NCBI GenBank assembly: GCA_963798485.1
Contig: CAWCTR010000021.1
Span: forward strand, 192,001-256,000
Direction of reading: 5' to 3'
Length of the DNA: 64,000 nucleotides
From: an uncultured delta proteobacterium
Lineage (GTDB): Bacteria; Desulfobacterota; Desulfomonilia; UBA1062
The position numbers and the translations under genes were made by a program. Below are positions 25,318 to 47,225 of this stretch, piece by piece. Below the pieces are notes generated by a model that had not been told where the DNA came from, searched no databases, and saw only the letters and a list, made by a program, of their open reading frames with translations. Every line of letters begins with the position of its first letter. Within the stretch, counting starts at the first letter, position 1.

Positions 25318-26147
25318 GCCTCAATGTCCAGAGGGCTCCTGACGGAAGAGAGTCCGGTGCGCGTAAGATGCAGGTAACGCGCGGTGGTATTGATGTAGCT
25401 ATGTCCCATCAGTTCCTGGATAGTACGAAGGTTGACACCGGACTCCAGTAGGTGCGTGGCGAAGCAATGCCGCAGGGTATGAATACCCCGGCCTCCGGTG
25501 ATTCCTGCCTTTCTCCTGGCTTTGTCATAGATTCGCTGTGCAGTGGTAATGTGCATGGTGTTCTTGCGGTCACGACCAGAAAACAGCCATACTGTGGGGC
25601 GGTACATCTTCATAAAGACCTGCATCTCATCCCAAAGTCGCTGGGAGAGGATCGTGTACCGATCCTTGTTGCCTTTTGCCTGCTCAATGCGGATGGTCAT
25701 GCGCGATCCGTCGATATGCTTCGGCTTCAAGCGCACCACTTCGCTGACTCGCAAGCCTGCTGAGTAAGTCGTCATGAGCAGGAGGCGATGCTTGGGGTTG
25801 GCGGTACAGTCAAAGAGACGCTCTATGGCTTCCCTGCTCATAATCTCGGGCAACTGGGACTTGTTCTTACGGGGCGGTATGCTTAGGCGTATAGATTCAT
25901 AGCCAAGAGTCTCCGAGTAGAAAAACCGGAAGGCGGACACCGCTAAGTTGCATGAGCTCCAGGCAAGCTTCCTTTCTTTCATCAGGTAAAGCAGATAATC
26001 CTGTACTTCCGTATTCGTGATCTTGTCGGGTGACCTCCCAAAATACTTCGCAAGCGCGGCAACAGCCATAACATAAGACTTCTGAGTCCGCTGTGAAAAC
26101 CTCCTGAGCTGCATCTCACGAATCATCTTCTCCCGTAGTTCCGTCAT
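25287..26147 (-). CDS. tyrosine recombinase with N-terminal SAM-like domain
   Basis: GLRVSE, KGNKDR, HTLRHCFATHLLE, MGH and TARY catalytic set. Confidence 0.95.
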   Translation of the reverse strand: MTELREKMIREMQLRRFSQRTQKSYVMAVAALAKYFGRSPDKITNTEVQDYLLYLMKERKLAWSSCNLAVSAFRFFYSETLGYESIRLSIPPRKNKSQLPEIMSREAIERLFDCTANPKHRLLLMTTYSAGLRVSEVVRLKPKHIDGSRMTIRIEQAKGNKDRYTILSQRLWDEMQVFMKMYRPTVWLFSGRDRKNTMHITTAQRIYDKARRKAGITGGRGIHTLRHCFATHLLESGVNLRTIQELMGHSYINTTARYLHLTRTGLSSVRSPLDIEACHLEGGQSC

Positions 26148-34492: not shown

Positions 34493-34936
34493 ATTGCCTT
34501 ATTCCCCCCTTCAAGATAAGTTATTCATCTCATAATGCCCATAAAACCTGCCTGCTTTTTAAACACCACTCATTTTTCAAGGTTTCCAAAACGTAATGAA
34601 GTCTCGTTGGAATGCAACACCAGATAAGGAAACCCCTTCTTACAAAAGAAATTGTCTTGCAAAAATCAGGCCTTTAGAATGAACCATGTCAATAGTCTCA
34701 TTTCATCATATGAAAGAAATGTGATAATAGTAACTTATGATAAAATCCAGGGCTGCAAAGATTCCTCGCTATTTTTAAACAGAATAGAAAATCTATTCTC
34801 TTTTTATGAAAACATTTTCTTCATGACGGTAAACATATGAGATTTTCCTTCATATATTCTTATGGCTCAAATTTGGTGTCAGGACACTCTGAACTAACCG
34901 GCGGTATCAGGTGAATGACAGACTTCTCCTCTATTA

Positions 34937-36670
34937 CTACTCACCTTCCATATATCTCTCAATGATATTTACTCCTAGACCTGTGCGTGAGCTTAATTTA
35001 ATTTTAAATCTTTTATCAAAAAGAAATTTCTTTACCCTGTCTATTTCATCCTTCTTATAATTAAAAGAATCTTCATTTCTTACAGAAATATCCACCCAGA
35101 TAAATCCATCTGAATAACCAATATCATCTAGCCTTGCGGCTGTTTCTTCGTAATTTCTACCAACCCTACCCCATTCTTGAATTGTGTCGCAAAATATAAG
35201 TATAAAAGATAAGGGATCTTCCTTGAAAGTTAAGGATTCTAAAATTTTCTTATGGGAAAAAGCACTATCAGCCCTTCCAGAAAAATGCCCCCAGATTCCT
35301 TCATCATGTAAAGCAATAGCCCTTGAAGCTTTTAGAAGGGCCTCCTTGTTCAATCCCTTGGGACGTTGTTTATCGAATAATTTTAATAACGATAACGCAC
35401 CTAAAAGACCATGATTTTTTTCATCGATGATTTTTTCATAAAAGAATAACAATGCAATTCTATCAATGGGGAGGTTATCAAATGTATCGCATAATTCCTT
35501 TGTTTTAAACATGTAATCTTCTTTTACATAGCATTCATCAAGGTTTAATCTTGAAGGATTTTTATCAAGAAACAAGGTATTTTTAAAAAATGTAGCTATC
35601 CATTCATTATAGTTTTGAATATTATAATTATAATCATGATAGGTCGAAGCCAAAAGCCACATATTTTCTAGTGAATTACCAAACTTTTTCTGGAAAGAAG
35701 ATATCGATTTATCAGTATATAATTTGTCTATTATGTAGCATCCTAAAAGAAATACATGAAGTTGATGCAAAAAATGATCCCTATATCTTGGATTGAGCAG
35801 TAGTACAGGTTCAAAATCTTTTTGAAATTCTGGATATTCTAAGCCGATTTTATTCCAAAGTTTTTTTATCAATTCTAATGCAATATCATAATCGTCTTCA
35901 ATTCTGGTTCTATATTCAGCAGCCAATTGTTGTAAATTATCAGTGTATTCTAGATGTTGGATTTCAGCAATCCGATCTATAAGCGTTAAACTAATATTTC
36001 TTCCTTCGGTCCTGCCAACAATTTCTCTTCTTTTATATTCTGGTTCAGGATAGTAAATAAGATATTTATTTGTTTCTTCAATATGAAGATCTAATTTTTC
36101 GAACAGCCTATGCTGTATATCTGGTATTAATTCCTTTGGAAGAGCCTTTTTATGTTCTTTGAGGTATTCTTGAAGTGGTAATATTACCTTGCTGAACTCT
36201 TCAAAGGAAATATCAATGAGTGGAATTGACGATATGATTTCTTCTACGGTCTTTTCTCCAACCTTAAAAAGACCGACTTTATAAGATTGACACAACTCTT
36301 TAAATCTATCGAATTCATTATCTTCACTTAAATAATCAGGATATGCCCAATACACTTTTGCTTTGGGAAAGTAGTATTGAAAGAATGTTGCTGAAGATGC
36401 ATCATTAAGCTCAATACCTCCTTTCACCAATGTACGTGGTATATGCAAATGATAGAAGAAGTCATTACTTTTTATTGTACGGCTATTGATAACATCAACT
36501 ACTACTTCATTAATAGATTCACTTTTCTTTGTAACTCCCCTCTTTCTTGCGTATACAGGCACTCGTGCAGGAAGGAACTTATCTGAGTATACCTCTGTCT
36601 CATATCCCTCTTTTTTGAAGTAGGCGGACAACCAGTTTGTCATTTGTTTCACTGTATATGTGCTTTTCAT
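34937..36670 (-). CDS. HD-superfamily phosphohydrolase domain protein with unassigned N-terminal domain
   Basis: RDHFLH, YHD, NHG, LHD and CDTIQEWGR motifs in the C-terminal half. Confidence 0.75.
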   Translation of the reverse strand: MKSTYTVKQMTNWLSAYFKKEGYETEVYSDKFLPARVPVYARKRGVTKKSESINEVVVDVINSRTIKSNDFFYHLHIPRTLVKGGIELNDASSATFFQYYFPKAKVYWAYPDYLSEDNEFDRFKELCQSYKVGLFKVGEKTVEEIISSIPLIDISFEEFSKVILPLQEYLKEHKKALPKELIPDIQHRLFEKLDLHIEETNKYLIYYPEPEYKRREIVGRTEGRNISLTLIDRIAEIQHLEYTDNLQQLAAEYRTRIEDDYDIALELIKKLWNKIGLEYPEFQKDFEPVLLLNPRYRDHFLHQLHVFLLGCYIIDKLYTDKSISSFQKKFGNSLENMWLLASTYHDYNYNIQNYNEWIATFFKNTLFLDKNPSRLNLDECYVKEDYMFKTKELCDTFDNLPIDRIALLFFYEKIIDEKNHGLLGALSLLKLFDKQRPKGLNKEALLKASRAIALHDEGIWGHFSGRADSAFSHKKILESLTFKEDPLSFILIFCDTIQEWGRVGRNYEETAARLDDIGYSDGFIWVDISVRNEDSFNYKKDEIDRVKKFLFDKRFKIKLSSRTGLGVNIIERYMEGE

Positions 36671-36680
36671 AAGATATTCC

Positions 36681-37174
36681 TCATCTATTTACCGTAAGCA
36701 ACTTCTCAATTTCTTCATATCCCTTATCTATATTATTAACTATAATTGTTTTATCTTTGAGTTCTTTCTTAATAATCCCAAGTTCTGTCAGACCCATTGT
36801 TCACGATATAAGATATTTTTCATAACTATCTTAAAGATTATTGGTATGTTTGATAATGCATAAGGCTTAATAACACCTTTTGGATCAGACAAATCAACTA
36901 CCCCTCTAGAATACCAGGCCCATGCTCTCCTCAACCATAAGATAATATGTATAGAGGGTGGCAGAAGATAAATGATCTTGTCATACTGTTCAGGATTTCT
37001 ATCAAGGCCATGCACATCTTCAACCAATATAGCCTTTGAAGAAGACTGAGGAATGTCTTCATGGGCATAGTAGTCCATATCGATTTGTAAAACCTTTCCA
37101 GGGAGTTTATCAGCTATTTTTCCACGTAAAGTGCTTTTCCCTATGTTTCCAATACCAGTGATTAGAATTTTCAT
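36681..37174 (-). pseudogene. P-loop nucleotide-kinase-like protein, apparent single-base frameshift near 36791
   Basis: MKILITGIGNIGKST Walker A; shifted frame continues LTELGIIKK...LLTVNR* to 36681, at the RBS of the next gene. Confidence 0.65.
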
Positions 37175-37191
37175 GATACCACAATGTTTAG

Positions 37192-38307
37192 TTATACCCT
37201 TTCATATACTCTAAGCGTTTCCTCTAGATATCGATCATATCCATAGCCAATCTTGATGTTGCATCTTGATGGGCCACTCCATTTATCGATTAATTCGGTG
37301 ATTTCCTTCTGTGTTATTTTCATATCATCAAGATCCACTCTTACAATCTGATTCTCTGGAATACCCTGTGTAAACTGCTCATATTCATTTACATCCAAAG
37401 TCAGGTCCGTGATTATCGTAAGGCCCGACCAGAGCGCTTCACACACGATGTTGGAAAAATCTTTGATAGGATTATCTCTTTCAAAATAAAGAAGGTAATC
37501 AATGTTTCCTAATAGAGCGGGCATATGGGCAGGATGAACAAAATTATTATGCTTATAATATCTTAAACCATTTCCCTCGACGAACTTGGCAAACTCAGAA
37601 AAACCACTTCCCTGTCCAACTATTTTCAATGCATGTCGATTTTTGATTTCCGAGAAGATCTCAATGATTTTGTCGAGACTTTTATATTTCCAATGGTAAT
37701 TTATTTTGCCAATGTAGGCAAAAGCAGGCACCTCATGTACATTGATTGCTGGTTTAAAGAACTTTTCATCGGGGATATATCTTGGGAGTGTAACTATATT
37801 TGAGTTGATAGCTTCAAAAATATTTCTGTTCTTGTCATCAGTAATAATTACTGCCGCATTTCGGATTACCTCCTTTAGGAGATTACTGAAAACACCCTGC
37901 TTCAGAAATTTAACTATATCACTACCCCCGTGCCTCAATACATAGGGAAGACCGGTTATATTGGATAGCAGATAGCCGACAATACCATATGGTATGAGGT
38001 AATTCGTATCTATTAAATCAATTTGGTTGTCGCAAATTATTTCCAGTGCCTTGTCCAAGAGTTTAGGCACGTAAAGAGCTGAGTAGGGAATGTGCCAGGG
38101 TGTATCTGGATCGATATAGTGAACTATCAGATTTGGAGGCAGTTCAGGGATTTGATCATTGATATAATATTCCTGTTCGACGCAATTTGCATTAGTGACT
38201 ACATGAACCGTAGCACCTTTTTCAGCAAACCCCTTTGCCATCCAGAAAGTCTGGGCTGATATTCCTCCCTGAGTAGGCGGGAACTTGCTGATCATACATA
38301 CGTTCAT
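37192..38307 (-). CDS. GT4-like glycosyltransferase
   Basis: SKFPPTQGGIS, YLIPYG, HGGSD and EALWSG motifs; GT-B pattern. Confidence 0.85.
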   Translation of the reverse strand: MNVCMISKFPPTQGGISAQTFWMAKGFAEKGATVHVVTNANCVEQEYYINDQIPELPPNLIVHYIDPDTPWHIPYSALYVPKLLDKALEIICDNQIDLIDTNYLIPYGIVGYLLSNITGLPYVLRHGGSDIVKFLKQGVFSNLLKEVIRNAAVIITDDKNRNIFEAINSNIVTLPRYIPDEKFFKPAINVHEVPAFAYIGKINYHWKYKSLDKIIEIFSEIKNRHALKIVGQGSGFSEFAKFVEGNGLRYYKHNNFVHPAHMPALLGNIDYLLYFERDNPIKDFSNIVCEALWSGLTIITDLTLDVNEYEQFTQGIPENQIVRVDLDDMKITQKEITELIDKWSGPSRCNIKIGYGYDRYLEETLRVYERV

Positions 38308-40036
38308 TTATTCGTCCTTTACAAAAATCGTCTATTGAAAAACCGGGTTCAAACCGACCCCTATTATGGACCATGAAATAATAAAAGAGATCAAACATAA
38401 GGACATCCGTGGCACTTTTACAATATTTTGCAAAAGGATGTTTTTTAATGGAATCAGCAGGAATAAGGCTATCAATTATCTTCGTAACTTGAGGGCCAAC
38501 ATACCCCAAGGCAGCAGGCATACCATATTTCTTTCTGCTAATAATATCTTCAAGGTTATACTTCTTTAAGTATGATGATGCTGCGTCTTTGAATATTCTT
38601 TTAGTTCTGTCTTTGTCAGGCACCTTGAACTCGATGGGCAGCGACAAAGCAAACTCTGCAATGTCGTCATAAAGATACGGAGGTCTCGTCTCAAAACCAA
38701 AGGCGGCGCACGATCTGTCAACGCTCCACAGGTGGTAATTCGAAAGCCCGGTTCTCACCAGTGTGTCGAAAAGATTTTTTCTATATGCCCTCTCATCTTC
38801 GGGTTGAGGGAAAAGGTCATGTACAATCTTTTGGACCTTTGAGCTCCCGGGAAGATGCGATGCCCTTTGTCGAATTCTGTCAGAAAAGCCGAGGGGATGT
38901 GTATACGGCCAATAATAACCCCCGAACAGCTCGTCTGCCCCTTCGCCGGTAAAGGCAACCTTATGGTGCTGGGAGATATATTTTGAAAGAATGTGAAAAG
39001 CCAATGCACCCTGAATATCAAAGACTCCACCTGACATGATATTCTCGTAGTGATATATAAAATCAGGCAGTTCATCGATGTAGCCCGAGGTATTGACACA
39101 AATCTCGTTATGTTCAGAGCCAATTGCTGTCGATACTTTCCGCGCATAATCAAGATCAGGGGCATCCTCTGAGTCATAAAGGGTATATGTCTTTACAGGC
39201 TTGTTGAGTATCTCGGTGGACAGAACAGCCATCATCGTTGAATCAAGACCGCCCGATAAATAGATAACCGTTTCATGATTTCCATGCTTGAGTAATCGGG
39301 TAAAAGCATGGAACAAGGTTTCAGTAAGTTGATCAACAGATTCCTGATAATCCATATTGCCATTGCTTACATAATCTGAAGGTTGTGGTGCGTAATATCT
39401 TCTAGATAAGATTTCATGCCCATCAAATTGTACGACGGTTCCCGGTGTGATCTGGCGGATGGATGAAAGCGGTGTGAGGTCCTCTGAAAAGACATACCCA
39501 AAGACTGTCAATTCCTCCAATGCATCTATATCGATCGCCGCAGGTACATCGGGGTGTTGCAGCAAGACTTTCATCTCTGAGCCGAAAATGAGCTTTTCCC
39601 CGGACCGGTGGTAATATAAGGGCTTAATGCCAAATCGATCCCGTGCAAGGAGGATCTTGTTTTTCTCCACGATGACAATCGCATACATACCCTTCAGGTG
39701 TTTTACAAAGTCAGGTCCATATTTTATGTATAGTGGTATAATAACTTCAGCGTCGGTGCCTGAGGTAAACTGAAATTCGTCTTGTAAGAGTTCTCTTTTA
39801 ATCTCCCTATAGTTATAAATCTCTCCGTTGAACAGAAGGGCGATATTGTGTCTCCTGTCTATGAAAGGCAGCACGTCATCTTGAGTGCTGACAATATTCA
39901 AGCCGCATTCACCGAGAGAATGGTTTCCAAATAATGTTGTTATGAACGAGTCTGGCCCGCGATGGCGTATTGATGAAAGCATGGCGGATACCACCACTTC
40001 GTTTCTCTCATTGAATATACCGCAGATGCCGCACAT
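38222..40036 (-). CDS. asparagine synthetase B-like glutamine amidotransferase
   Basis: MCGICG start at 40036 (TGATG overlap with upstream gene); HRGPD, FNGEIYN, RDRFGIKPLY, LSGGLDS and GEGADE motifs. Confidence 0.92.
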   Translation of the reverse strand: MCGICGIFNERNEVVVSAMLSSIRHRGPDSFITTLFGNHSLGECGLNIVSTQDDVLPFIDRRHNIALLFNGEIYNYREIKRELLQDEFQFTSGTDAEVIIPLYIKYGPDFVKHLKGMYAIVIVEKNKILLARDRFGIKPLYYHRSGEKLIFGSEMKVLLQHPDVPAAIDIDALEELTVFGYVFSEDLTPLSSIRQITPGTVVQFDGHEILSRRYYAPQPSDYVSNGNMDYQESVDQLTETLFHAFTRLLKHGNHETVIYLSGGLDSTMMAVLSTEILNKPVKTYTLYDSEDAPDLDYARKVSTAIGSEHNEICVNTSGYIDELPDFIYHYENIMSGGVFDIQGALAFHILSKYISQHHKVAFTGEGADELFGGYYWPYTHPLGFSDRIRQRASHLPGSSKVQKIVHDLFPQPEDERAYRKNLFDTLVRTGLSNYHLWSVDRSCAAFGFETRPPYLYDDIAEFALSLPIEFKVPDKDRTKRIFKDAASSYLKKYNLEDIISRKKYGMPAALGYVGPQVTKIIDSLIPADSIKKHPFAKYCKSATDVLMFDLFYYFMVHNRGRFEPGFSIDDFCKGRINERMYDQQVPAYSGRNISPDFLDGKGVC

Positions 40037-40875
40037 CAGCCTGTCTCTCTCGATAAATATTTCAAAGCCTCGACCAAACCCCAATAGGCATAGGCAGATC
40101 CCTCTTCAATGTAATGATAAGGCCAGAATCCGTTGGGAAGCTGTGTGTCTACCAGCCAGTTAACCGCTTTTTCTATTACCTTTCTTTTCACTAGTTCTGG
40201 ATAAGAAAGAAGCCCCAGCAACACAATCCCTGTTGACCACGGGTCACTTCCGATAGGATGGTCTTTCCAGGGGCCAAAGCCACCATCTTCATTCTGTTCC
40301 TCAGCAAGGAATAAATAAGTATCTTTTATTGATGGACAATCTTCAACGGAAACATTTGATGCTGCCAGTCCCAGTAAAAAGAAACCACCCTTATACGTGA
40401 GTTTCGTAGCACCCTTAAAATCTTTTGCCCATTCCCTTTGCAACCAGTTTACAGCCCTTGGGTCGGAAAGTGATGGAAAAAGATTCAAAAGAAGTCCTGT
40501 TATGGGGATACGGGATATATCACGATTAGTACGCCCCCACCCACCATCTGGATTGCGTTGGGATAAAATCCATTTATTTCCTTTTTCTACCAAAGAGCTA
40601 TAAACATTGCCAATTAATGAGAGGATCTTAACAGAAAGTAAAGACTCTTCCACATCTGACCAGCCACCATCAATGTGTTGATGGTCAGCAGTATATTGAG
40701 CTACCTGTTTGTACAAGATGCTCTTAGAATTAGCCCCTGCACTAATAAGTGATAGGGCACAGATATTTATTCTTCTGACTTCTATCTGATTTTTTAGAGC
40801 TGACCTTATAAAGTCAGTAAGCTGAATGGAAGCTACAATGACACATTGAGTATTATTTTTTTGATTCTTATTCAT
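40036..40875 (-). CDS. prenyltransferase/squalene-cyclase (QW-like) repeat protein
   Basis: Four repeats: QHIDGGW, QRNPDGGWG, QNEDGGFG, QLPNGFW. Confidence 0.85.
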   Translation of the reverse strand: MNKNQKNNTQCVIVASIQLTDFIRSALKNQIEVRRINICALSLISAGANSKSILYKQVAQYTADHQHIDGGWSDVEESLLSVKILSLIGNVYSSLVEKGNKWILSQRNPDGGWGRTNRDISRIPITGLLLNLFPSLSDPRAVNWLQREWAKDFKGATKLTYKGGFFLLGLAASNVSVEDCPSIKDTYLFLAEEQNEDGGFGPWKDHPIGSDPWSTGIVLLGLLSYPELVKRKVIEKAVNWLVDTQLPNGFWPYHYIEEGSAYAYWGLVEALKYLSRETG

Positions 40876-43800
40876 GAGCTTTTTGGAGTGGCAGACCTAC
40901 TTCACAGATCATACGCATTTCTTCTTGAATGATGTTTTCAGGTTTAGATTTTAAACAGACGTCGCAGAAATAGAAGAGGGCTTCATCCATTCCATATCCA
41001 AAGTGCCTATATTGTATATTTAAAGCATCAACAAAACGCTTGCAACCGTAGCACCAGACTTTATAGTGCCTTTCTTTGCAATCCGGCTTTATCCATTCAA
41101 GTTCTTTTTCAGGTAGTTTTTCCTGTCTTGCCAGAATAACATTCAACCCGATATCTACGGGGAGACATACCCGTTTACACGTTTCATTTTCGAATATCCG
41201 GTTAAGGCGTTTTATAAGATCGATTCGAATGCCCCCTTTCAGCTCCTCACCAAATTCTGATATTAATATAAGCTTGTTCTTATTGCCCTCGTTTTTATTG
41301 CCCTTGTTTTCTTTGATCGATTTAATGAATCGCAATAAACCAAAGAGATATGGATGCTTTGCTTTCTCGATAAGTTTCTCGCACTGCGGACCTCTATAAT
41401 ATGAAAACTTCTTCTTCTCTTCATTCACACTTTCACTTTCTATTAAAGCGCCTAGATGGATACAGACAGCATCGCATTTTTCATATTGTTCCGGTATTTT
41501 TTCTTCCCATTTTGTATCTCCTGTGTATCCAAATGAATATACAGGATCTCCTCCTTCCTTACCATTTTTATGATCAATAAAGTCAATGACATAACCAAAG
41601 GAATCTGACCTTTCAGAGTAGTCGTTGTGATAAGCTATAGTTGGTGTTATTTTTAACTCTCCCTCTTCATTTTCTTTATCTCTTATGATCGATTCGAATA
41701 CATCTTTACTCCCATTTTTTGATGAACGCTTAAATTCAAATGACGGAGGTTTCTTTTTATTATCAGGAGGATAGATTTCCTTATCTATATCCACTATATA
41801 CGTGTCAGCCAAGAATTCCCGTAAAGTAGTATTATTTATAATATGTTCTAATTTACGATAGACTCCCAATGACATGATAGCATGTATTTTCTTTTCAGAG
41901 CCCTTTACTCTCTTCGTAAGATCGAGCAATGATGACACGATCGGCTCGAAATCCCGTATATGATCGGAATGGGCGTGCGATATCAGGATGAAGTCTATGT
42001 CATTGAGCGTAAAACCCATATGAAACAGATTCTTGACAAAATCAAAACCCGGATCAATGGCGATTCCAAGCGTCACAGATCCTTTTTCATCCTGTTTATA
42101 GAGGAGGTAGCCTCCGCCCAGTGATAAGGTAAGCGTGGGTGTCTGGGAATTCCATCTTTGAAGGCCTACAAAGTGATATGACTTTTGTGTTGAATCGGAA
42201 TATAAATGATGACTGCTACGATATTGCAAGCGAGCGAGAAAATGCTCGTTTTCCTGCTTCATGATCCCTTCATATATATTTGCCTCTAGTGTTCTTATAT
42301 CCGCATGCGGAGATTGAGACAAAGAATGATTCCTCACTGGATTTCTAATCGTTCCGAATAAACAACAGGAGGATAGTATGTTCTGCTGCTTTATAGGACA
42401 GTTACCTAGAAGGCCATCAAAGGCTTTACGATCTTCCGGTTCAGAAAAACAACTAACACATTTCCTCTCATCCAAATGATTCTTCAATCTATTAATTCTC
42501 TGATGCCTTTCAAGCTCTTTAAATCGATAAAGTAGAAACTTTTCACGTTCATAATCGTTCAGTGCCCCTAAGAAATATTTTTCGTCTTCAATGTAATCTT
42601 TAGAGTCTAAATTTCTATAAAACTTTTCTAAAGAGTCTGCATACCGGTCGTAATCATATTTGTCGAAGTCTTTAAGTTTAACTCCATTCTCTTTTTTTTC
42701 AGGTAGAATATATTCTTTAATCTTCTCATAGAGATTTTTTATTATTGTATCCTGATAATATTTATCCTCAGGCTTAGAATTCTTATGAAATTCCGAAAGC
42801 AATTTCAGAAACCTTGCGATTTGTTGATAATAACGTGTCCTTTCATTTTTGATTTGAAGAACTGCGCCTTTATTGTTTGGATCTATATAGTTCGGGAATT
42901 TATTACTAAGAGATTCTAAGTCTTTTTTAAATATATCATAATTAACTTCTTTATCTTCTATTTGTTTAAGCCGTTGAAGTTTATCCCAACTAATTTCGAA
43001 TTTTAAAAGAAAGTATTCAAATAAAAGCCCACGAGTCTTACTAATGCTATTTTTTCTAATATTATTTTTTCTGGTTCCCCAAGTATCAAATGCTTTAAAA
43101 AAAGATTCAATGTTATCCATATTGGTTTTAAGCTCTTGGGATGCCAGAAGTTCTATAATTTTTTCTTTTGCCATCTCCATTCTTCCAATATCTCTGTAAG
43201 CAAGAGCCACCTTTATGAGTCTGTTTTCTTTTTTCCTGTCATTAAGCTTTTGTAAGGTCACTATTGTATGATATGAAAATTGCAGAGCTTCTTGGAGCTC
43301 GGCCCTAAAAAGAACAGCCTGGTCATAGAGAAGACTTCTCCACAGCACCTTTTCATCTTTAGCTTGCAGGCATTGTGCAGCATTATCATAATCAAATCCT
43401 CTGATTACTTCACTAAAGGCGAGGGCTGCTTGCATCTTTTGGTTTGAATGCCAATATCCGATACCTTCATTCAATCGCGCCCAGAGCTTATACAGCTCAA
43501 ACCTATAATGGGATGCGCTTCCGTTCTCCGTTTTACCTTTGATGGCCTCCTCACGGGCTCGAATTGCAAATCCAAGAGATTCGAGACCTGGTTTTCCACA
43601 GGCAGAAAGTTCCTGAAAATAAAGATGTTGAAGAATTATTTCGTGATTTGTTTGTGGATATGGATACGGGAGCTTACGTTGCAGATATACGATAAGTTCG
43701 TCTAGATGCTTCATGTAGCTGTCTGTGCCTTGTTGCATGATTTTTGCACGGAGGTACTTGGCAAAGAATAAGCGCCTCCATTTAATATTTGTTGTTTCTA

Positions 43801-44071
43801 TTTTGCAGGAACCGATATCTTGAATGGATTGTTCAGGATATTCTTCTTTATTATCGTCATTAATATTAATAAAAATTGATTGGAAATCTTGCTCGCCGCA
43901 GAAAACCTTATTTATTTTTTCCTTTAATGTTTTCTCAATTGCAATACAGTCATATAACTTTTCATACTCCTCTTCATCAATCCAGACATCAACTTTTACA
44001 TTTAGCAGCTCAAGTTCTTGGAAATCTTCATTGGTCACATAATCACCCCGTCCCCCCAAACAGTTAGGCAA
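40868..44071 (-). CDS. large protein with helical N-terminus, C-terminal MBL-fold metallo-hydrolase and possible Zn ribbon
   Basis: IDPG, SHAHSDH (HxHxDH), HND, YTGDT; terminal CYGC...CDVC; start may be GTG at 44038. Confidence 0.85.
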   Translation of the reverse strand: MPNCLGGRGDYVTNEDFQELELLNVKVDVWIDEEEYEKLYDCIAIEKTLKEKINKVFCGEQDFQSIFININDDNKEEYPEQSIQDIGSCKIETTNIKWRRLFFAKYLRAKIMQQGTDSYMKHLDELIVYLQRKLPYPYPQTNHEIILQHLYFQELSACGKPGLESLGFAIRAREEAIKGKTENGSASHYRFELYKLWARLNEGIGYWHSNQKMQAALAFSEVIRGFDYDNAAQCLQAKDEKVLWRSLLYDQAVLFRAELQEALQFSYHTIVTLQKLNDRKKENRLIKVALAYRDIGRMEMAKEKIIELLASQELKTNMDNIESFFKAFDTWGTRKNNIRKNSISKTRGLLFEYFLLKFEISWDKLQRLKQIEDKEVNYDIFKKDLESLSNKFPNYIDPNNKGAVLQIKNERTRYYQQIARFLKLLSEFHKNSKPEDKYYQDTIIKNLYEKIKEYILPEKKENGVKLKDFDKYDYDRYADSLEKFYRNLDSKDYIEDEKYFLGALNDYEREKFLLYRFKELERHQRINRLKNHLDERKCVSCFSEPEDRKAFDGLLGNCPIKQQNILSSCCLFGTIRNPVRNHSLSQSPHADIRTLEANIYEGIMKQENEHFLARLQYRSSHHLYSDSTQKSYHFVGLQRWNSQTPTLTLSLGGGYLLYKQDEKGSVTLGIAIDPGFDFVKNLFHMGFTLNDIDFILISHAHSDHIRDFEPIVSSLLDLTKRVKGSEKKIHAIMSLGVYRKLEHIINNTTLREFLADTYIVDIDKEIYPPDNKKKPPSFEFKRSSKNGSKDVFESIIRDKENEEGELKITPTIAYHNDYSERSDSFGYVIDFIDHKNGKEGGDPVYSFGYTGDTKWEEKIPEQYEKCDAVCIHLGALIESESVNEEKKKFSYYRGPQCEKLIEKAKHPYLFGLLRFIKSIKENKGNKNEGNKNKLILISEFGEELKGGIRIDLIKRLNRIFENETCKRVCLPVDIGLNVILARQEKLPEKELEWIKPDCKERHYKVWCYGCKRFVDALNIQYRHFGYGMDEALFYFCDVCLKSKPENIIQEEMRMICEVGLPLQKAHE

Positions 44072-44139
44072 TAAATTAAATCTTGGTTAACTCTTATACT
44101 AACCTTGAGTCCAGACTGTAGATAATTAAAATTTGGAAA

Positions 44140-44280
44140 TTAACGGCAACCATGGCATCCGGAGCACTGACGGCAGACGATCCGTTTGTCGGATGCATTG
44201 ATAATTTCAACGGGGAAATTCATAGTCTTTTCTTTTCTCAACAGAGGTTTTTCGTACTTTTTTAATTTATCCTTTTTCAT
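44140..44280 (-). CDS. putative RiPP precursor peptide, 46 aa (MKKDKLKKYEKPLLRKEKTMNFPVEIINASDKRIVCRQCSGCHGCR)
   Basis: Manual translation; AGGAG RBS; ATGA overlap with the PqqD stop; YxxPxL motif; C-terminal CxxCxxCxxC. Confidence 0.85.
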   Translation of the reverse strand: MKKDKLKKYEKPLLRKEKTMNFPVEIINASDKRIVCRQCSGCHGCR

Positions 44281-44570
44281 CTTTCTCTCCTTTTAAGAAT
44301 ACCTTCGTTAATATAATTTGTGATGATTTCATTAAAATCACTTTTCCCCTCTGCTTCATTGACGTTAAAACTGCTCAGAAAACCTTTTAAAATGCTCTGA
44401 AGGGGTATGTTCTCCGCAATCTGCTCGAGGATCCAATAGGAGGTTTCATTCAGAGTATAATGTTCCCCTGTGTCAATATTGAAGACCCAGTATTTCCCGA
44501 GCTCCCCAATTTTTTGAAGAAAAATATTGTCCTGCAATACAAACGAATCGATCTCTTTTATTTCCAGCAT
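44277..44570 (-). CDS. PqqD-family / RiPP recognition element protein
   Basis: 97 aa; TGEHYTLNETSYWILE...FNV...D...EGIL pattern; overlaps the radical SAM gene. Confidence 0.88.
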   Translation of the reverse strand: MLEIKEIDSFVLQDNIFLQKIGELGKYWVFNIDTGEHYTLNETSYWILEQIAENIPLQSILKGFLSSFNVNEAEGKSDFNEIITNYINEGILKRRER

Positions 44571-45583
44571 TGAGTGTCCTCTGCAAGGTAATCACCGGTT
44601 GCAGTGAAAGCTGAGGCCCTGCATCCCCGGCAAGCAGCTAAAAATTCACATCCGGAGCATTTACCTTTAATGTTCTTGGGATTTCTTATGTCCCATAGAA
44701 CTTTGGACGTATACCACACCTTATAAAAGCTATCATTAAGGGCGTTCCCTATGGGGATCGGTAATCGCCGGCATGGGAGAATTGTGCCATCATGCATAAT
44801 GGTTAATGCGTTCGTGCCTGCAGAACACATGGCGCCTACAGTGGGATCATGTCCGTTAAGAAGACTAAAGAGGGGGCGGTATAATAAGATACGCGGTTTT
44901 TTCTGTTTCAATGCCCGGGTATAAATCTTGGTGAATATCTGTTTCAGCTGAACCGATGAAAGAAATTGATCCTCCAGACCAGCCCCTTTCCCCTCAGGGA
45001 TAAATCGCTCGGCTGCAAATGTATCGACCCCTTCTTTTTCTAACAGATCAATCACGGGATCAAACTCATCTTTATTGAAATTGCTGATCGTCATCATGAC
45101 AGCTATTTGAAAATCATTTTTCTTTAGCAATCGAATGGCATCAAGCGCCTTTTGAAAACTGCCGGAGCCCCTGATCTGATCATTAATATGGGGCGACGAT
45201 CCTTCGAGAGAGAGCTGTATCCGCCTCAGTTTTTTCAGACTCTTCAAGTCGCCAAGAATATCTTCATGAATAAAGCACCCATTGGTCAGGATATCGAAAT
45301 GATGCACAGATTGAAGTGTATCAATATGATTCAGAAGGGAAAACATTTTGTCTTGAACAACAAATGGCTCACCGCCGGTGATGGATAATGTCCCCTTCTT
45401 GTTCCATTTTCTTAATGTGTCATCTATTTCATCTGCCACAATAATGAGTTTATCCAGGCTCAGCTCGTTATCTGATGAATACTTGTCATGATAGCAGTGT
45501 TTGCATCTAAGGTTGCACCTTTCAGTGATGTGCCACTGAAAATAGAATTCTTCATCTATGTTTAATTCATCAAACTGATTCAT
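44558..45583 (-). CDS. radical SAM/SPASM peptide maturase
   Basis: CNLRCKHC, TGGEP; SPASM CSAG..DGTILPC..GN..CSGC..CRGC..DTQC. Confidence 0.95.
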   Translation of the reverse strand: MNQFDELNIDEEFYFQWHITERCNLRCKHCYHDKYSSDNELSLDKLIIVADEIDDTLRKWNKKGTLSITGGEPFVVQDKMFSLLNHIDTLQSVHHFDILTNGCFIHEDILGDLKSLKKLRRIQLSLEGSSPHINDQIRGSGSFQKALDAIRLLKKNDFQIAVMMTISNFNKDEFDPVIDLLEKEGVDTFAAERFIPEGKGAGLEDQFLSSVQLKQIFTKIYTRALKQKKPRILLYRPLFSLLNGHDPTVGAMCSAGTNALTIMHDGTILPCRRLPIPIGNALNDSFYKVWYTSKVLWDIRNPKNIKGKCSGCEFLAACRGCRASAFTATGDYLAEDTQCWK

Positions 45584-45779
45584 CTCTTCATAAAGTTATG
45601 ACAGGATCTAATTCCATCTAATTTTATTGGTGCAGAGATAGCACAACTCAATCAAAATTAATATCAAAAGAAATTGTATTAAAAACCTAGCACATCATCT
45701 ATCAAATTGATAATACATAATTTTATCTGATTTCCTGATCGTATTTTTAATGTACTTTTAGGATTCAATCACCAGCTGA

Positions 45780-47225
45780 TCATGGTTCGAACTTTGGATC
45801 AGGGCATTCAGGGTATGTCGGAGGAAGAGGCCTGCATGCCGGCAGCTCCTCGATAACTCGCATGGACTTCCACTTCCCCTGAAGGAAACGTCCAAAGAAG
45901 GCAAATCCCAGAATAGTCACATAGGCAGTGGCACTATACCAAGCCGCCATTAACCCAAACCCGAGAACCGTGATGGCTATATAGGTTGGAATGACGAGAA
46001 TGAAGGCAGAGACCAGAACGTTCATGTACATGACGAAGCGTGTGTCCCCTGCTCCCTTTATGGCATATGCAAAGATAACATTCATGGTATCAAAGACAGA
46101 GTAAAATGCCACAAACCTGAGCAGCATTATACTGAGGCGTTCAATCTCGGTATATGCCCCTGCATGAGCATGCGCAGCAAAGGGTGCTACAAGAACACCA
46201 GGCACCACCACGAAAAGGATCGCGATGGTACTCATATAGATAAACGTCATACCGAATCCCGAATATACGCTTCTGGCGGCAATGGCAGGCCGGTTTTTGC
46301 CAAGATACTGCCCCACGAGAACAGATACCGCAATGCCGACCCCAATCATGGGCATGAAGGCAAGCGTGTTGATGTTGAATGCTATGTTTGTTGCAGCAAG
46401 GCTTACTGTGCCAAGACGCCCAAGGATCAGTACAAATACTGTGAACCCTACCATATCGAGGAAGAACTGCACCCCTGACGGAACTCCGAATTTAAGCAGT
46501 CGCACGAACAGCTCCCTCTCTGGTTTCCAACCTGAGATAGTATGATAGACTGCATCGTAGGAAGGATGAGCAATAAGTGCCACATAGGCCAAGAAGGAAA
46601 AGCTCCCAGAGATAACCGCAGCAATGGCTGCACCTTTCATCCCCATCTCAGCGAACCCCCACTTTCCGAAGATGAGCATGTAACCCAGAACGAGATTGAC
46701 AGCGGTGGCGAGCACATTTACCCACATGACAGGCCAGGGCTTCCCCCTGCCAGAGAAGAATCCGGCCAAGGCGGAGGCGGCTATCACCGGGAAGCCGCCA
46801 AGGCAGAGGTACTGGAAATAAACCACTTCATTTTTCTGCACTGCAGGGTCATGACCTACAAAGGCAAAAAAAGGCCCGGCAAACGGGATCAGGCATAAGA
46901 TAATCAGACCCCCGATAAGTGACAAGTAGATGCCCTGCCACAGGGCCGGGCCGATCCTGTCATATCTTCGGGCGCCATAGTATTGTGCCACAAAGGTGTT
47001 CACATAACTCGCAGTCCCGATGAAAAAGCTCATGACTGCGAAGTTCACCATACTTGAGGGCATGGCTGCGGCTATGGTCTCAGGTGAATACCAGGAAAGA
47101 AACATCCGGTCCACGAAGTGCTGGATAGACCAAGAGCCGGTGCTGAGCACCAGCGGGAAGGCGAGCACGAGCACTTCCCGGACTCCACCTTGGCCTGACC
47201 ATCTTTCTTTTAAGTAATTATTCAT
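45780..47225 (-). CDS. MATE-family efflux transporter
   Basis: VAQYYGA, GMKGAAIA, VGQYLG and KGAGDT motifs; multi-TM. Confidence 0.93.
   Translation of the reverse strand: MNNYLKERWSGQGGVREVLVLAFPLVLSTGSWSIQHFVDRMFLSWYSPETIAAAMPSSMVNFAVMSFFIGTASYVNTFVAQYYGARRYDRIGPALWQGIYLSLIGGLIILCLIPFAGPFFAFVGHDPAVQKNEVVYFQYLCLGGFPVIAASALAGFFSGRGKPWPVMWVNVLATAVNLVLGYMLIFGKWGFAEMGMKGAAIAAVISGSFSFLAYVALIAHPSYDAVYHTISGWKPERELFVRLLKFGVPSGVQFFLDMVGFTVFVLILGRLGTVSLAATNIAFNINTLAFMPMIGVGIAVSVLVGQYLGKNRPAIAARSVYSGFGMTFIYMSTIAILFVVVPGVLVAPFAAHAHAGAYTEIERLSIMLLRFVAFYSVFDTMNVIFAYAIKGAGDTRFVMYMNVLVSAFILVIPTYIAITVLGFGLMAAWYSATAYVTILGFAFFGRFLQGKWKSMRVIEELPACRPLPPTYPECPDPKFEP

Follow-up and report, generated by a model that had tools for sequence, protein, structure and literature searches.

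A mobile gene island centred on a Cys-rich peptide with phage-borne relatives, possibly an undescribed conflict system

What does a block of nine co-oriented genes around a short Cys-rich peptide do in an uncultured delta proteobacterium? The block lies in a 64,000-nucleotide stretch of contig CAWCTR010000021.1 (the window), and the initial annotation described it as an AT-rich run of overlapping or nearly abutting genes that lacks a dedicated peptidase or ABC exporter. We found the nine open reading frames (ORFs) at 34937-45583, all on the minus strand and in full agreement with that description (Table 1). Overlaps of 13 nt (rSAM/PqqD), 4 nt (PqqD/peptide), 8 nt (MBL/SHC), 1 nt (SHC/AsnB) and 86 nt (AsnB/GT4) were detected, and GC content was 0.380 in 34938-45845 vs 0.492 to the left and 0.499 to the right. 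Family searches of the block ORFs detected neither a peptidase nor an ABC exporter, as had been claimed. The island was inserted at the 3' end of a MATE gene, for which it brings a surrogate gene end, and its edges take in exactly the nine genes. A search of 40 relatives for the island's SHC-like gene found it in none. The island is mobile, and the window's own flanks consist of housekeeping genes.

Table 1. Coordinates, strand and supporting evidence for the island and its genes
Feature	Position	Strand	Evidence and remarks
Whole inserted island	34938..45845	-	10,908 bp, GC 0.38; flanks colinear with congener G007 in blastn, alignment interrupted at 34937 and 45846
Surrogate MATE 3' end brought by the island, 22 codons	45780..45845	-	Congener MATE homology ends at 45846; C-terminus unlike congener's
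Radical SAM/SPASM enzyme, 341 aa	44558..45583	-	PF04055 4e-21, PF13186 1e-7
Stand-alone PqqD/RRE peptide chaperone, 97 aa	44277..44570	-	PF05402, 26.1 bits vs gathering cut-off 23.4
Precursor-like peptide, 46 aa	44140..44280	-	Basic N-terminus, YEKPLL motif, C-terminus VCRQCSGCHGCR
Candidate effector, MBL protein, 1056 aa, GTG start	40868..44038	-	PF12706 on residues 670-880 only; AF2 pLDDT 86.6
SHC/prenyltransferase-repeat protein, 279 aa	40036..40875	-	PF13243 2.5e-12
Glutamine-hydrolysing AsnB-type amidotransferase, 604 aa	38222..40036	-	TIGR01536, 323 bits vs cut-off 267
GT4-family (GT-B) glycosyltransferase, 371 aa	37192..38307	-	PF13477, PF13439, PF13579
Small P-loop NTPase gene	36681..37174	-	128-aa ORF 36788-37174 plus ~35 codons in another frame; Walker-A/B
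Second candidate effector, 577 aa	34937..36670	-	Conserved motifs and fold; AF2 pLDDT 78
Original MATE 3' end, displaced, 26-codon remnant	34860..34937	-	~90% identity to G007 MATE 3' end; translation VIEEKSVIHLIPPVSSECPDTKFEP*

Conserved synteny in other genomes indicates that the cluster is more than a product of chance. A core of seven genes (rSAM/SPASM, PqqD, peptide, MBL protein, SHC-like barrel, AsnB and GT4) was found, at times reshuffled, in Desulfobacterota, Chloroflexota, Syntrophorhabdia, Calditrichota and KSB1. When the search was seeded with the MBL protein, 16 of 35 loci contained the peptide with cluster genes, and 15 of these 16 were complete for the seven core genes, the contig of the sixteenth ending early. 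An independent test seeded with the peptide, limited to loci whose flanks reached 1.4 kb or more upstream and 7.5 kb or more downstream, detected rSAM, MBL, SHC and AsnB in all 12 cluster-context metagenome loci and GT4 in 11, the exception (L038) lying on a contig that ends early; 11 of these 12 loci thus had the full set of seven core genes. Gene order differed in L009, and in L017, L019 and L020 the maturation genes were inverted relative to the MBL gene.

That a RiPP trio, a sugar- and amide-modifying set and stand-alone nucleases came to lie on one island by mere juxtaposition is scarcely credible. The P-loop and 577-aa genes are not universal, relatives of the 577-aa protein also occur in unnamed clusters of other phyla, and a STAND NTPase gene is inserted in the cluster of L001, all of which would suit such an assembly. 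Against it stand the joint occurrence of the core across phyla despite rearrangement, which largely refutes chance for these seven genes, the overlapping coding regions and the island boundaries. The nine-gene system originally proposed thus stands for its seven core genes; the P-loop gene, seen in 9 other loci, and the 577-aa gene, an alternative or add-on to the MBL gene, fall outside it. The downstream genes do co-occur with the rSAM-PqqD-peptide trio in distant taxa, and no characterised system matched the cluster.

We examined the putative maturation genes. The radical SAM enzyme contains a CNLRCKHC motif and a 7-Cys SPASM tail. Its best NCBIfam match was TIGR04340 (190.6 bits vs a cut-off of 400), its nearest solved sequences were SkfB and CteB-type sacti/ranthipeptide maturases, and its target is presumably the Cys-rich C-terminus of the peptide. 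The best NCBIfam matches of PqqD, all weak, were lasso-type PqqD. The SHC-like protein is a single alpha/alpha-barrel with DGGW repeats that, in the alignment, has neither a DxDD motif nor a conserved Cys, and its solved relatives are class II terpene-cyclase-like (~1e-6). In the distant variant locus L154, the SHC-like gene is linked to the trio, with MBL, GT4 and AsnB missing, suggesting that the SHC-like protein acts on the peptide. AsnB starts with MCGI, carries an SGGLDS PP-loop and has the hydroxyamidotransferase 7ylz as its nearest solved sequence (3e-44). The domains detected in the glycosyltransferase were N-terminal GT4 ones only, and the protein is weakly nearest to BshA-type enzymes. 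A nucleotide had also been suggested as the object of this downstream tailoring, which was not borne out as stated.

The peptide contains four Cys among its last ten residues, with the family pattern VC[RK]QCS[SG]CH[GSN]CR at its C-terminus. P12, F22, V35, C36, Q38, C39, C42, H43, C45 and R46 were invariant in a 15-sequence alignment, and no NCBIfam model matched. Metagenomes yielded at least 426 relatives, and 27 came from viral contigs (IMG/VR). The majority (21 of 27) of the IMG/VR loci contained the peptide among terminase, portal, adaptor or capsid genes, and the maturases were absent from all 27 within the fetched flanks. Phage lineages with the peptide in the morphogenesis module included those with P22-type, SU10-type and HK97-type portals and those with a gpA-type terminase. 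The phage peptides match distinct host-cluster subtypes, the KGLGF-leader subtype included, with identities that reach 89% over 38 residues, and they retain the leader and core motifs and so should be acceptable to the host enzymes. Next to the peptide, some phage-like loci have a short AsnB, a methylase or a B12-rSAM of their own, suggesting that the phage peptide may have a separate function. A near-invariant core across phyla, with no peptidase or exporter, would fit a ligand better than an antibiotic.

These loci could also mean that the peptide was originally a phage head/packaging-module protein, and that the island decorates a captured copy, or the phage's own copy reached via the shared leader, so that a "poisoned" subunit would halt packaging or assembly while the nucleases act on phage DNA. 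The occurrence of the peptide in phage morphogenesis modules across many lineages, its basic character and Zn-knuckle-like C-terminus, and the motifs common to phage and host copies are consistent with this idea. We nevertheless consider it improbable: nothing points to the peptide as a virion component, we did not find it in any PHROG family or GenBank phage, the host's own copy at every locus is left unaccounted for, and the peptide is self-tailored in some phage-like loci.

Two proteins of the island are candidate effectors. The MBL protein is predicted to comprise a TPR solenoid (residues 1-540), an RNase Z/ElaC-like MBL phosphodiesterase domain (~600-970), which carries an HAHSDH motif, and a C-terminal CxxC..CxxC Zn ribbon. 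Foldseek matched its model to RNase Z, ElaC, YhfI and Apyc1 at E values of 1e-7 to 1e-5, and VIA on the MBL domain gave Z 23.0 for ZipD, Z 20-23.5 for the RNase Z/ElaC range and Z 18.2 for PqqB. For the N-terminal part, VIA gave phage phi105 Rap with peptide (8rte; Z 17.3 over 322 residues) and NprR-NprX (4gpk; Z 16.0). The best matches of the modelled N-terminal 500 residues were thus peptide-binding RRNPP receptors, although this could be generic solenoid likeness. The 577-aa protein is predicted to join a restriction-endonuclease-like fold (1-150) to an HD/PDE-superfamily domain (~230-570), and contains the conserved motifs H..HD..H..HD..D. VIA matched it to the GppA/PPX HD domain (Z 10.1), PDEs (Z 9-10) and the nuclease folds AF2093, XisH, PaqCI, Card1 and Can2 (Z 6.5-9.5). 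In seven loci (L075, L078, L098, L099, L107, L109 and L113) the MBL gene gives way to a member of the 577-aa family, this island has both, and hhalign detected no domain in common between the two proteins.

The P-loop gene is frameshifted here, as tblastn of its 161-171-aa relatives changes frame near residue 128-131; in L019 the MBL protein has a P-loop domain fused at its N-terminus. Three labels of the initial annotation required adjustment. "MBL hydrolase" is right for the fold and covers one part only of a three-part protein, "HD protein" agrees with motifs and fold in the face of no Pfam match, and "kinase" reduces to a Walker-A/B P-loop protein for which we found neither a family match nor a solved relative.

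The rSAM/SPASM enzyme, RRE and precursor form the canonical RiPP triad. A classical pathway, whose product would be a cofactor, metallophore or natural product made from the peptide and kept inside the cell, is the strongest of the alternatives weighed here, although we judge it unlikely. The rSAM and PqqD would crosslink the Cys-rich core, AsnB would amidate it, GT4 would glycosylate it, and the SHC-like barrel would bind or cyclise it; the MBL or HD protein would be a tailoring or processing hydrolase, like PqqB in PQQ synthesis, and the phage copies would be a stoichiometrically consumed precursor, that is, an auxiliary metabolic gene. Mycofactocin genes include an rSAM, PqqD and a glycosyltransferase, and PQQ synthesis involves the MBL-fold protein PqqB, so that both offer precedents, the latter with its structural match to the MBL domain. 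Cofactor precursors typically have an invariant core, L154 pairs the SHC-like protein with the trio, and the carriers are mostly sediment/groundwater anaerobes by their record titles. However, both alternative hydrolases have predicted phosphodiesterase/nuclease folds rather than peptidase ones, the neighbourhood conserves neither a redox partner nor a client enzyme, and mycofactocin and PqqE models score far under their cut-offs. Absence from the 40 relatives and a mobile island would be unusual for a cofactor, and the phage peptide tracks host subtypes in head/packaging modules of many lineages.

We investigated the neighbourhood of the loci for defence genes. Twelve of the 24 flanked loci contained R-M, Lamassu-, Druantia/BREX-, AbiE-, Hhe- or PDC-type genes within 10 kb. 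PADLOC matches (E<=1e-12) were found for 26 of 124 flank ORFs vs 7 of 119 in 9 control loci (Fisher by ORF, p = 6e-4, with ORFs of one locus not independent), and by locus the excess was not significant (12/24 vs 2/9, p = 0.24). R-M neighbours also tend to be common to mobile islands of any kind. PADLOC v2.0.0 on the island genes themselves returned a generic viperin rSAM match only and no known defence family. With TIGR04340 also missed, the view that this architecture belongs to no named class held up.

Because phages have look-alike copies of the peptide, a previously undescribed bacterium-versus-phage conflict system is probable. We tentatively propose, as a serious possibility, a mobile, peptide-centred anti-phage system: the peptide, once matured, would control a phosphodiesterase/nuclease effector, and the phage copies would be mimics. 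Going by the enzyme families, PqqD would bind the 46-aa peptide at its YEKPxL leader, the SPASM radical SAM enzyme would modify the invariant Cys-rich C-terminus of the peptide, and the SHC-like barrel, glutamine-dependent AsnB (by carboxylate amidation) and GT4 would tailor it further. The anatomy of the island suggests that the matured peptide stays unexported and may serve as ligand or regulator of the following gene's product, either the putative TPR (RRNPP-like peptide-receptor fold), RNase Z-like MBL and Zn-ribbon protein or the restriction-endonuclease-like and HD protein. Most likely, the peptide would keep the nuclease off, infection would lead to its loss or displacement, and the nuclease would be released; phages would counter with subtype-matched copies of the peptide gene in late/head modules.

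The earlier preference for a conflict role over a secreted bacteriocin gains support from the phage-borne peptides, the effector-gene swapping and the defence-gene neighbours. The apparent swap between two unrelated phosphodiesterase-type proteins after the peptide counts for the conflict reading. Against it count, as judged from sequence, the lack of any gene matching a known defence family and four extra enzymes that seem lavish for a regulator. The 577-aa alternative has no TPR domain, leaving a common mode of peptide reading unexplained. The phage copies lie in late/structural modules, not early anti-defence regions, and the housekeeping flanks of the window and the by-locus test also count against it.

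Among known systems, ranthipeptide/sactipeptide clusters share the SPASM rSAM with CX3CX2C and a 7-Cys tail, the stand-alone PqqD and an adjoining short Cys-rich precursor with a leader. The island differs in falling below the cut-off of the nearest RiPP model (NCBIfam "ACGX system"), in lacking a protease or exporter, in its invariant core peptide without an NCBIfam match, in the fixed company of AsnB, GT4, SHC-like barrel and nuclease-type protein, and in the phage-borne copies of its precursor. Mycofactocin (MftABC...F) and PQQ (PqqA-E) likewise combine rSAM/SPASM, PqqD and a small peptide with an invariant C-terminus, but the island scores 106.9 vs 265 for TIGR03962 and 74.8 vs 381 for PqqE. 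Its MBL domain is nearer to RNase Z/ElaC than to PqqB, its MBL protein has predicted TPR and Zn-ribbon parts and is interchangeable with a REase-like and HD protein, and it lies on a mobile island. Lasso peptide clusters resemble it in their PqqD-type RRE, their AsnB homologue and the YxxPxL-like motif, which is the lasso leader motif. The island AsnB, by contrast, still has the glutaminase nucleophile Cys2 and scores above the cut-off of the true asparagine-synthase model, the score against the lasso cyclase model is 127.5 vs 525, and a transglutaminase-like leader peptidase is lacking.

RRNPP systems (Rap-Phr and NprR-NprX) are similar by fold only: peptide-bound Rap and NprR are the best structural matches of the modelled TPR solenoid, and here too a small peptide gene adjoins that of the candidate receptor. 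Where those systems have an HTH or phosphatase as output domain, the island has an RNase Z-like hydrolase, and its 46-aa peptide has an RRE-type leader, dedicated maturases and no signal sequence. Phages take part in RRNPP signalling through arbitrium AimR-AimP and phage Rap. Phage antitoxin mimics are also found in toxin-antitoxin abortive infection, as in ToxIN with pseudo-ToxI and RnlA with T4 Dmd. The small partner of the island would, unlike theirs, need multi-enzyme maturation, and there is no sequence relation; in both, a nuclease-type gene directly follows a small gene, and look-alikes of the small partner occur in phages.

The nine co-oriented genes reported in the initial annotation were recovered as open reading frames (ORFs) in series on one strand, and the block is indeed AT-rich, with a GC content of 0.380 within it versus 0.492 and 0.499 outside. 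Translation of the radical SAM gene (rSAM) revealed a CX3CX2C motif (CNLRCKHC) and the SPASM cysteine motif C..GxxxxC..CxxCx5CxxxC..C. Three labels given earlier needed qualification: the 'MBL hydrolase' contains an MBL domain, but its gene encodes a large multi-domain protein; the 'HD protein' of 577 aa has HD metal motifs and a helical fold, but Pfam HD gave no match at E ≤ 0.01; and the 'kinase' has Walker-A/B motifs, but family scans matched nothing and the gene is frameshifted here. The frameshift lies near codon 128-131, and the last ~35 codons, which are in another frame, are conserved in relatives of 161-171 aa; it is either a sequencing error or the sign of a decaying accessory gene. 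As first noted, none of the nine proteins matched a peptidase family. PDB sequence searches gave no match for the P-loop protein, the MBL protein or the 577-aa protein, the window contains no tRNA genes, and promoter and terminator scans gave no signal above shuffled expectation.

Coordinates of the island, its genes and related features (unprefixed positions are in the window; L numbers denote loci in other genomes and in metagenome or IMG/VR contigs)
Feature	Position (strand)	Size	Observations
Island	34938-45845 (-)
Nine-gene block	34937-45583 (-)		ORFs in series, most junctions overlapping
rSAM/SPASM enzyme		341 aa	PF04055 4e-21; PF13186 1e-7
Stand-alone PqqD		97 aa	PF05402 above cut-off
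Peptide	44140-44280 (-)	46 aa	Basic N-terminus; YEKPLL motif; C-terminus VCRQCSGCHGCR
MBL protein	40868-44038 (-)	1056 aa	MBL model matches residues 670-880 only
SHC-like protein		279 aa	Squalene-hopene-cyclase/prenyltransferase repeats
AsnB (asparagine synthase)			Begins MCGI; passes TIGR01536 (323 bits, cut-off 267)
GT4 glycosyltransferase			Assigned in family scans
P-loop protein	36681-37174 (-)	128 aa	Walker-A/B; family scans without match
577-aa protein	34937-36670 (-)	577 aa	Family scans without match
Breaks in blastn alignment with congener G007	34937 and 45846
Remnant of original MATE 3' end	34860-34937	26 codons
Island-derived end of present MATE gene	45780-45845	22 codons
Direct repeat	34643 and 45665	13 bp
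IS91-family (Y2) transposase and phage-integrase-family recombinase	24043-26147 (-)		~9 kb from island
Zeta-toxin-family P-loop kinase gene	L006:6253-6846; L010:5844-6470; probably L012:5704-6294		Directly upstream of rSAM, one sub-lineage
Second radical SAM gene, in L017 and L020 with a B12-binding rSAM	L017:11248-13946; L019:11489-12592; L020:4587-7213		Divergent sub-lineage
Distant variant cluster	L154:4001-10143		IMG/VR contig of 133 kb; rSAM/SPASM (37% identity), PqqD-like, SHC-like barrel (34% identity), split B12-rSAM; different Cys-rich peptide of 40 aa, YEAPVF leader, C-terminus CKGKWCFGCTNCNCN; 404-aa protein; 378-aa protein (class II aaRS-like by eye)
Two different peptide paralogues on one contig	L063:517-845; L136:10001-14254		Also L137, L138
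Orphan peptide copies	L056/L057:10001-10120; L112 (= L120):10001-10114		Apparently cellular context; no cluster gene within 10 kb

Comparison with related genomes delimited the island. The congener genomes G007 and G008 have an uninterrupted run of MetW, a small MBL gene, MATE, a 157-aa gene and MazG, and a search of 40 relatives (14 congeneric, 10 from the same family, 16 from the same class; completeness 71-100%) did not find the SHC-like gene. The boundaries follow from the breaks in the blastn alignment, the surviving 3' end of the original MATE gene and the codons from the island in which the present MATE gene terminates; integration occurred at the MATE 3' end, at a conserved ...MRVIE site. 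The island holds exactly nine genes plus an upstream region and contains no integrase, and the window flanks carry ordinary genes (MazG, acyltransferase, TetR, HlyD/ABC-2 transporter, MetW/MetX and PanBC). A MATE gene is likewise the immediate upstream neighbor of rSAM in L028 and L046, and L013 has one close to the cluster. This recurrence may reflect the integration site and suggests a preferred integration target, though the island lacks an integrase. MATE was rejected as a dedicated exporter here, being a host gene that congeners lacking the island have at this position too. A direct repeat bracketing the island region was rejected as an att site and is probably due to chance, because its left copy falls within sequence that runs colinearly in the congener. 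The transposase and recombinase genes in the window lie beyond the ABC-2/HlyD transporter operon, and no link to the island was seen.

An MBL-seeded scan, with the MBL-family alignment as seed and one genome per species, was used to examine conservation of the gene set. Among the candidates scored, the MBL family had 254 relatives at E ≤ 1e-3, named at source only 'MBL fold metallo-hydrolase', 'ribonuclease BN' or 'hypothetical'. The scan gave 35 loci, 16 of which contained the peptide and cluster genes by tblastn. The full seven (rSAM, PqqD, peptide, MBL, SHC-like, AsnB and GT4) were present in 15 of these 16, the PqqD of L017, L019 and L020 being recognized only through Pfam and a second tblastn; in the sixteenth, L012, the contig stops within AsnB. 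L002 and L008 are truncated by contig ends, and the remaining 17 loci contained distant MBL domains or fragments only. Loci from the scan came from Desulfobacterales, Desulfosalsimonadaceae, Syntrophaceae, Syntrophorhabdus, Chloroflexota, Calditrichaeota and KSB1. An independent peptide-seeded scan found at least 426 relatives in metagenome contigs, and 46 of the best 80 adjoin cluster genes. Twelve of the 46 had at least 1.4 kb upstream and 7.5 kb downstream, and all 12 contained rSAM, MBL, SHC and AsnB; GT4 was found in 11 (L038 ends early) and a detectable PqqD in 11. The rSAM-PqqD-peptide trio is adjacent in the 16 genome loci and in the 46 metagenome loci from the best 80 of at least 426. 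The downstream genes thus accompany the trio elsewhere. Chance juxtaposition of unrelated genes is highly improbable, the seven core genes being together in 15/16 genome loci. L009 has a reshuffled gene order, and in L017, L019 and L020 the maturation genes have the opposite orientation to the MBL gene, which argues for selection on the gene set rather than one inherited arrangement. Of 1.84 billion representatives, 38 belong to the SHC-like family at E ≤ 1e-30, which makes it a small one.

The two non-core genes are more sporadic. The P-loop gene was found in nine other loci (L001, L002, L013, L014, L028, L050, L066, L070 and L019), in the last as a P-loop domain joined to the N-terminal end of a 1197-aa MBL protein, and the 577-aa gene adjoins the MBL gene in L001, L002 and L066. 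A Zeta-toxin-family kinase gene in one sub-lineage may be the counterpart of the P-loop gene of the window's lineage. In the divergent sub-lineage with a second radical SAM gene, L017 and L020 contain a 503-aa B12-binding rSAM between the MBL and GT4 genes.

Alignment of 15 peptide copies showed that P12, F22, V35, C36, Q38, C39, C42, H43, C45 and R46 are invariant and that Y9 and S40 are nearly so. The C-terminal dodecamer of 63 cluster-context copies is mostly VCRQCSSCHGCR and close variants. YxxPxL is the RRE-binding motif of lasso leaders, and the best NCBIfam matches of PqqD were lasso PqqD models, at sub-threshold scores. Given the trio, the safest inference is that rSAM and PqqD mature the peptide. 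In the distant variant cluster, which lies beside a sigma-54 activator and gave no MBL, GT4 or AsnB matches, an SHC-like gene is paired with rSAM, PqqD and a Cys-rich peptide, and this pairing supports a peptide-directed role for the SHC-like barrel. AsnB retains the glutaminase nucleophile and the PP-loop and is therefore expected to amidate a carboxylate in an ATP-dependent reaction, that of the peptide's invariant C-terminal Arg being a candidate substrate; GT4 should add a sugar. Orphan peptide copies were also seen, with TrmB, a cyclase-like protein and TyrRS as neighbors in one case and a 3187-aa protein and a Wzy-like ligase in the other.

The peptide is more constant between phyla than antimicrobial RiPP cores are, which would fit a role as ligand, as cofactor precursor or as metal site. 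The invariant core is therefore also compatible with the main rival reading, a RiPP or cofactor pathway in which the hydrolases would be tailoring enzymes and the phage copies of the peptide auxiliary genes. We judge this reading somewhat unlikely; under it, the cluster would define a new RiPP/cofactor family of wide phylogenetic range, marked by an unusual set of enzymes and by the invariant core CxxCxxCHxC.

The MBL protein was modeled with AF2 (81 sequences, pLDDT 86.6, pTM 0.89). The model comprises an all-helical solenoid (residues 1-540), an MBL domain (~600-970) and a C-terminal beta ribbon bearing an invariant CxxC...CxxC pair. HAHSDH, which conforms to HxHxDH, and H804, D841, H861 and H895 are invariant over the 81 sequences. 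The MBL domain is closest to RNase Z, ElaC, ZipD, YhfI and PNGM-1 and then to Apyc1, PhnP, RNase J and CPSF (Foldseek E 1e-7 to 1e-5, with probability 1.0 for RNase Z, ElaC and YhfI; VIA Z 20-23.5), and it matched PqqB at Z 18.2. By this model, the protein is a fold-level relative only of RNase Z/ElaC-type phosphodiesterases, because it misses the tRNase Z equivalog score (17.8 versus 293). The best VIA matches of the solenoid were peptide-bound RRNPP receptors, namely phage phi105 Rap (Z 17.3, 322 residues aligned), NprR-NprX (Z 16.0) and RapI (Z 14.3), followed by generic TPR proteins. The TPR part matched no sequence family, the likeness being one of fold, and for the N-terminus ESM Atlas gave nothing beyond weak TPR leads (0.83). 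This resemblance between helical repeats is suggestive only. Complex prediction of TPR residues 1-545 with the peptide gave a score of 0.02, which speaks neither for nor against binding.

A model of the 577-aa protein (8 sequences, pLDDT 78) has a PD-(D/E)xK-nuclease-like N-terminal 150 residues, resembling AF2093 (Z 9.5), XisH, PaqCI and NucS as well as the nuclease domains of Card1, Can2 and Cdn1. Residues 230-570 resemble the HD domains of GppA/PPX, cyclic-nucleotide PDEs, YhaM and HD-GYP (VIA Z 9-10), a fold that agrees with the conserved H..HD..H..HD..D motifs; the conserved motifs are YRDHFLHQ, TYHDYNY, KNHG, LHDE and FCDxxQE. Whole-model Foldseek matches were weak (best E 0.011), and the recognizable folds came from the VIA wide search. 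In ESM Atlas, the nearest clusters were unnamed (0.96 and 0.95) and HD appeared at 0.78 only. In seven metagenome loci (L075, L078, L098, L099, L107, L109 and L113), the place of the MBL gene is occupied by a member of the 577-aa family (34-40% identity), and no MBL gene was detected; the cluster runs intact from rSAM to GT4 in L109 and almost so in L075, and the other five loci are cut downstream. Comparison of the two families by hhalign found no common domain. Such alternation of two unrelated phosphodiesterase/nuclease-type proteins at a single position is what swappable effectors would show.

The surroundings of the cluster were scanned in 24 loci with at least 2.5 kb of flank, four near-duplicates having been dropped, which yielded 124 flank ORFs of at least 150 aa. 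Type I restriction-modification (R-M) genes lie directly upstream of the cluster in L006 and L111 (Pfam, PADLOC), type IIG or DrmMI-like methylase-nucleases were found in L007, L050 and L101, and an Eco29kI R-M pair in L071 and L087. Other defence genes were LmuB (L007), an AriA/HEC-01A-like ATPase (L012), a DruE/BrxL-like protein (L014), a 1794-aa Hhe/PDC-S37 helicase-nuclease (L017), PDC-S02 (L080), dCTP-deaminase-like genes (L085) and AbiEi (L006). In total, 12 of the 24 loci and 26 of the 124 ORFs (E ≤ 1e-12) were positive. Nine control loci from the same scan, which contain unrelated MBL genes only, gave 7 of 119 ORFs, with plausible defence genes in two loci (AbiE in L027 and a weak LmuA-like match in L031) and R-M genes in none of the nine. 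By ORF the difference gave p = 6e-4 (Fisher), the ORFs not being independent, and by locus (12/24 versus 2/9) p = 0.24. The association of the cluster with defence genes is suggestive, not established. In L001, a 1291-aa metallophosphatase-STAND-TPR gene is inserted within the cluster.

An alignment search of IMG/VR with the peptide identified 27 loci, within the fetched flanks of which none of the other eight island genes was found. Neighbors were identified by clustering, with one representative per family identified. Phage structural or packaging genes lie within ~7 kb of the peptide in 21 of the 27 (all except L116, L119, L120, L122, L124 and L142), including small and large terminases, P22-, SU10- and HK97-type portals, a head-tail adaptor and a major head protein. 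Six more long metagenome loci contain the peptide only, three of them (L064, L067 and L094) with phage head genes. The phage copies retain leader and core and are 39-89% identical to the nearest cluster copy over the last 38 residues, aligned ungapped from the C-terminus. Phage and cluster copies pair by subtype: L123 with L007 (CKQCSSCHNCR type), L117 and L118 with L041, and L134 with L017 ('KGLGF' leader type). A phage-type mini-module surrounds the peptide in L077, L082, L110, L126, L130 and L135, consisting of a 224-241-aa AsnB fragment (PP-loop part only) and a His-rich protein of 81-136 aa of no known family, with a B12-binding rSAM in L110. Searches of GenBank phages (INPHARED) by tblastn with the peptide gave no match, and PHROGs had no family for six peptides, the D8 protein, PqqD, SHC, the 577-aa protein or the P-loop protein. 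With regard to the copies in phages, a 'poisoned phage subunit' model was also considered, and we find it improbable.

Some contigs contain two different peptide paralogues; in L136-L138, one copy lies beside portal and capsid genes and the second, more divergent, follows the adaptor gene. A small N6_N4 methylase gene lies between the peptide and MBL genes in six full clusters (L013, L014, L028, L038, L042 and L070) and beside the peptide in a short contig (L037) and, with the short AsnB, in the mini-module of L082. The methylase in these eight loci was not taken as evidence of DNA-level R-M logic, because the peptide is an equally possible methylation target.

Our preferred reading, tentative and in our view quite possible, is a conflict system whose nuclease/phosphodiesterase effector is under the control of the matured peptide, with phages supplying mimics. 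It is favored because the TPR-RNase Z-like partner is exchangeable with the REase-like and HD protein, and because of the mobility, the patchy distribution, the defence-gene neighbors and the subtype-matched phage copies. rSAM and PqqD would mature the peptide, on which the SHC-like barrel would also act, AsnB would amidate a carboxylate, GT4 would attach a sugar, and the product would control the effector encoded next. Because phages carry the peptide, we infer that the direction of control is one in which the peptide holds the effector off; phages would then provide peptide mimics. RiPP pathways are generally regarded as sources of antibiotics or cofactors, and defence as the work of protein- or nucleotide-based machines. 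In this cluster, interchangeable nuclease-type proteins on a mobile island accompany a canonical rSAM-RRE-peptide module, whose peptide is also found in many uncultivated phages. The conflict system, if right, would represent a new class of immune signaling based on a matured peptide ligand and a new class of phage counter-measure, and it would give a function to rSAM clusters otherwise filed as orphan 'ranthipeptide-like' BGCs.

A more specific, RiPP-based form of immunity appears distinctly unlikely. In it, an rSAM-matured, amidated and glycosylated peptide would silence the TPR-RNase Z or REase-HD nuclease, and subtype-matched precursor mimics encoded in phage head modules, some with tailoring enzymes of their own, would be matured by host enzymes, perhaps packaged, and disarm the nuclease. 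If true, this would be the first ribosomal peptide natural-product pathway to serve as the core of anti-phage signaling, with a matching phage counter-defence.

The defence reading, if true, would make the system categorically new. The ACGX family, defined by its repeats (TIGR04340/TIGR04341), differs in that the island rSAM scored 190.6 bits against a cut-off of 400 and the island peptide ends in CxxCxxCxxC and matched no NCBIfam family at E ≤ 0.01. Mycofactocin (MftC; TIGR03962, 106.9 against 265) and PQQ (PqqE; TIGR02109, 74.8 against 381) differ by the rSAM score. A lasso cluster differs in its AsnB, that of the island scoring 127.5 against 525 for NF033535 while passing TIGR01536, and in its leader peptidase family, which is absent from the nine island proteins. 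The curated scores of the SbtM, GeoRSP and SCM models were also missed. The initial annotation had recognized no named class, and this stood: PADLOC-DB v2.0.0 missed eight of the nine proteins, matching only the rSAM to pVip (viperin) models through the generic rSAM domain, and the curated RiPP scores were not reached. A full-text literature search covering the enzyme combination, 'ACGX', the peptide motifs, phage-encoded precursors and rSAM with defence, in a body of text with few subscription journals and no supplements, returned no description of the system, and the available portion of PMC11118758 does not mention radical SAM. Judged by its sequences, the system belongs to the broad rSAM/SPASM and RRE kind, with both Cys motifs in the rSAM and with a conserved PqqD and a short precursor gene adjacent to it.
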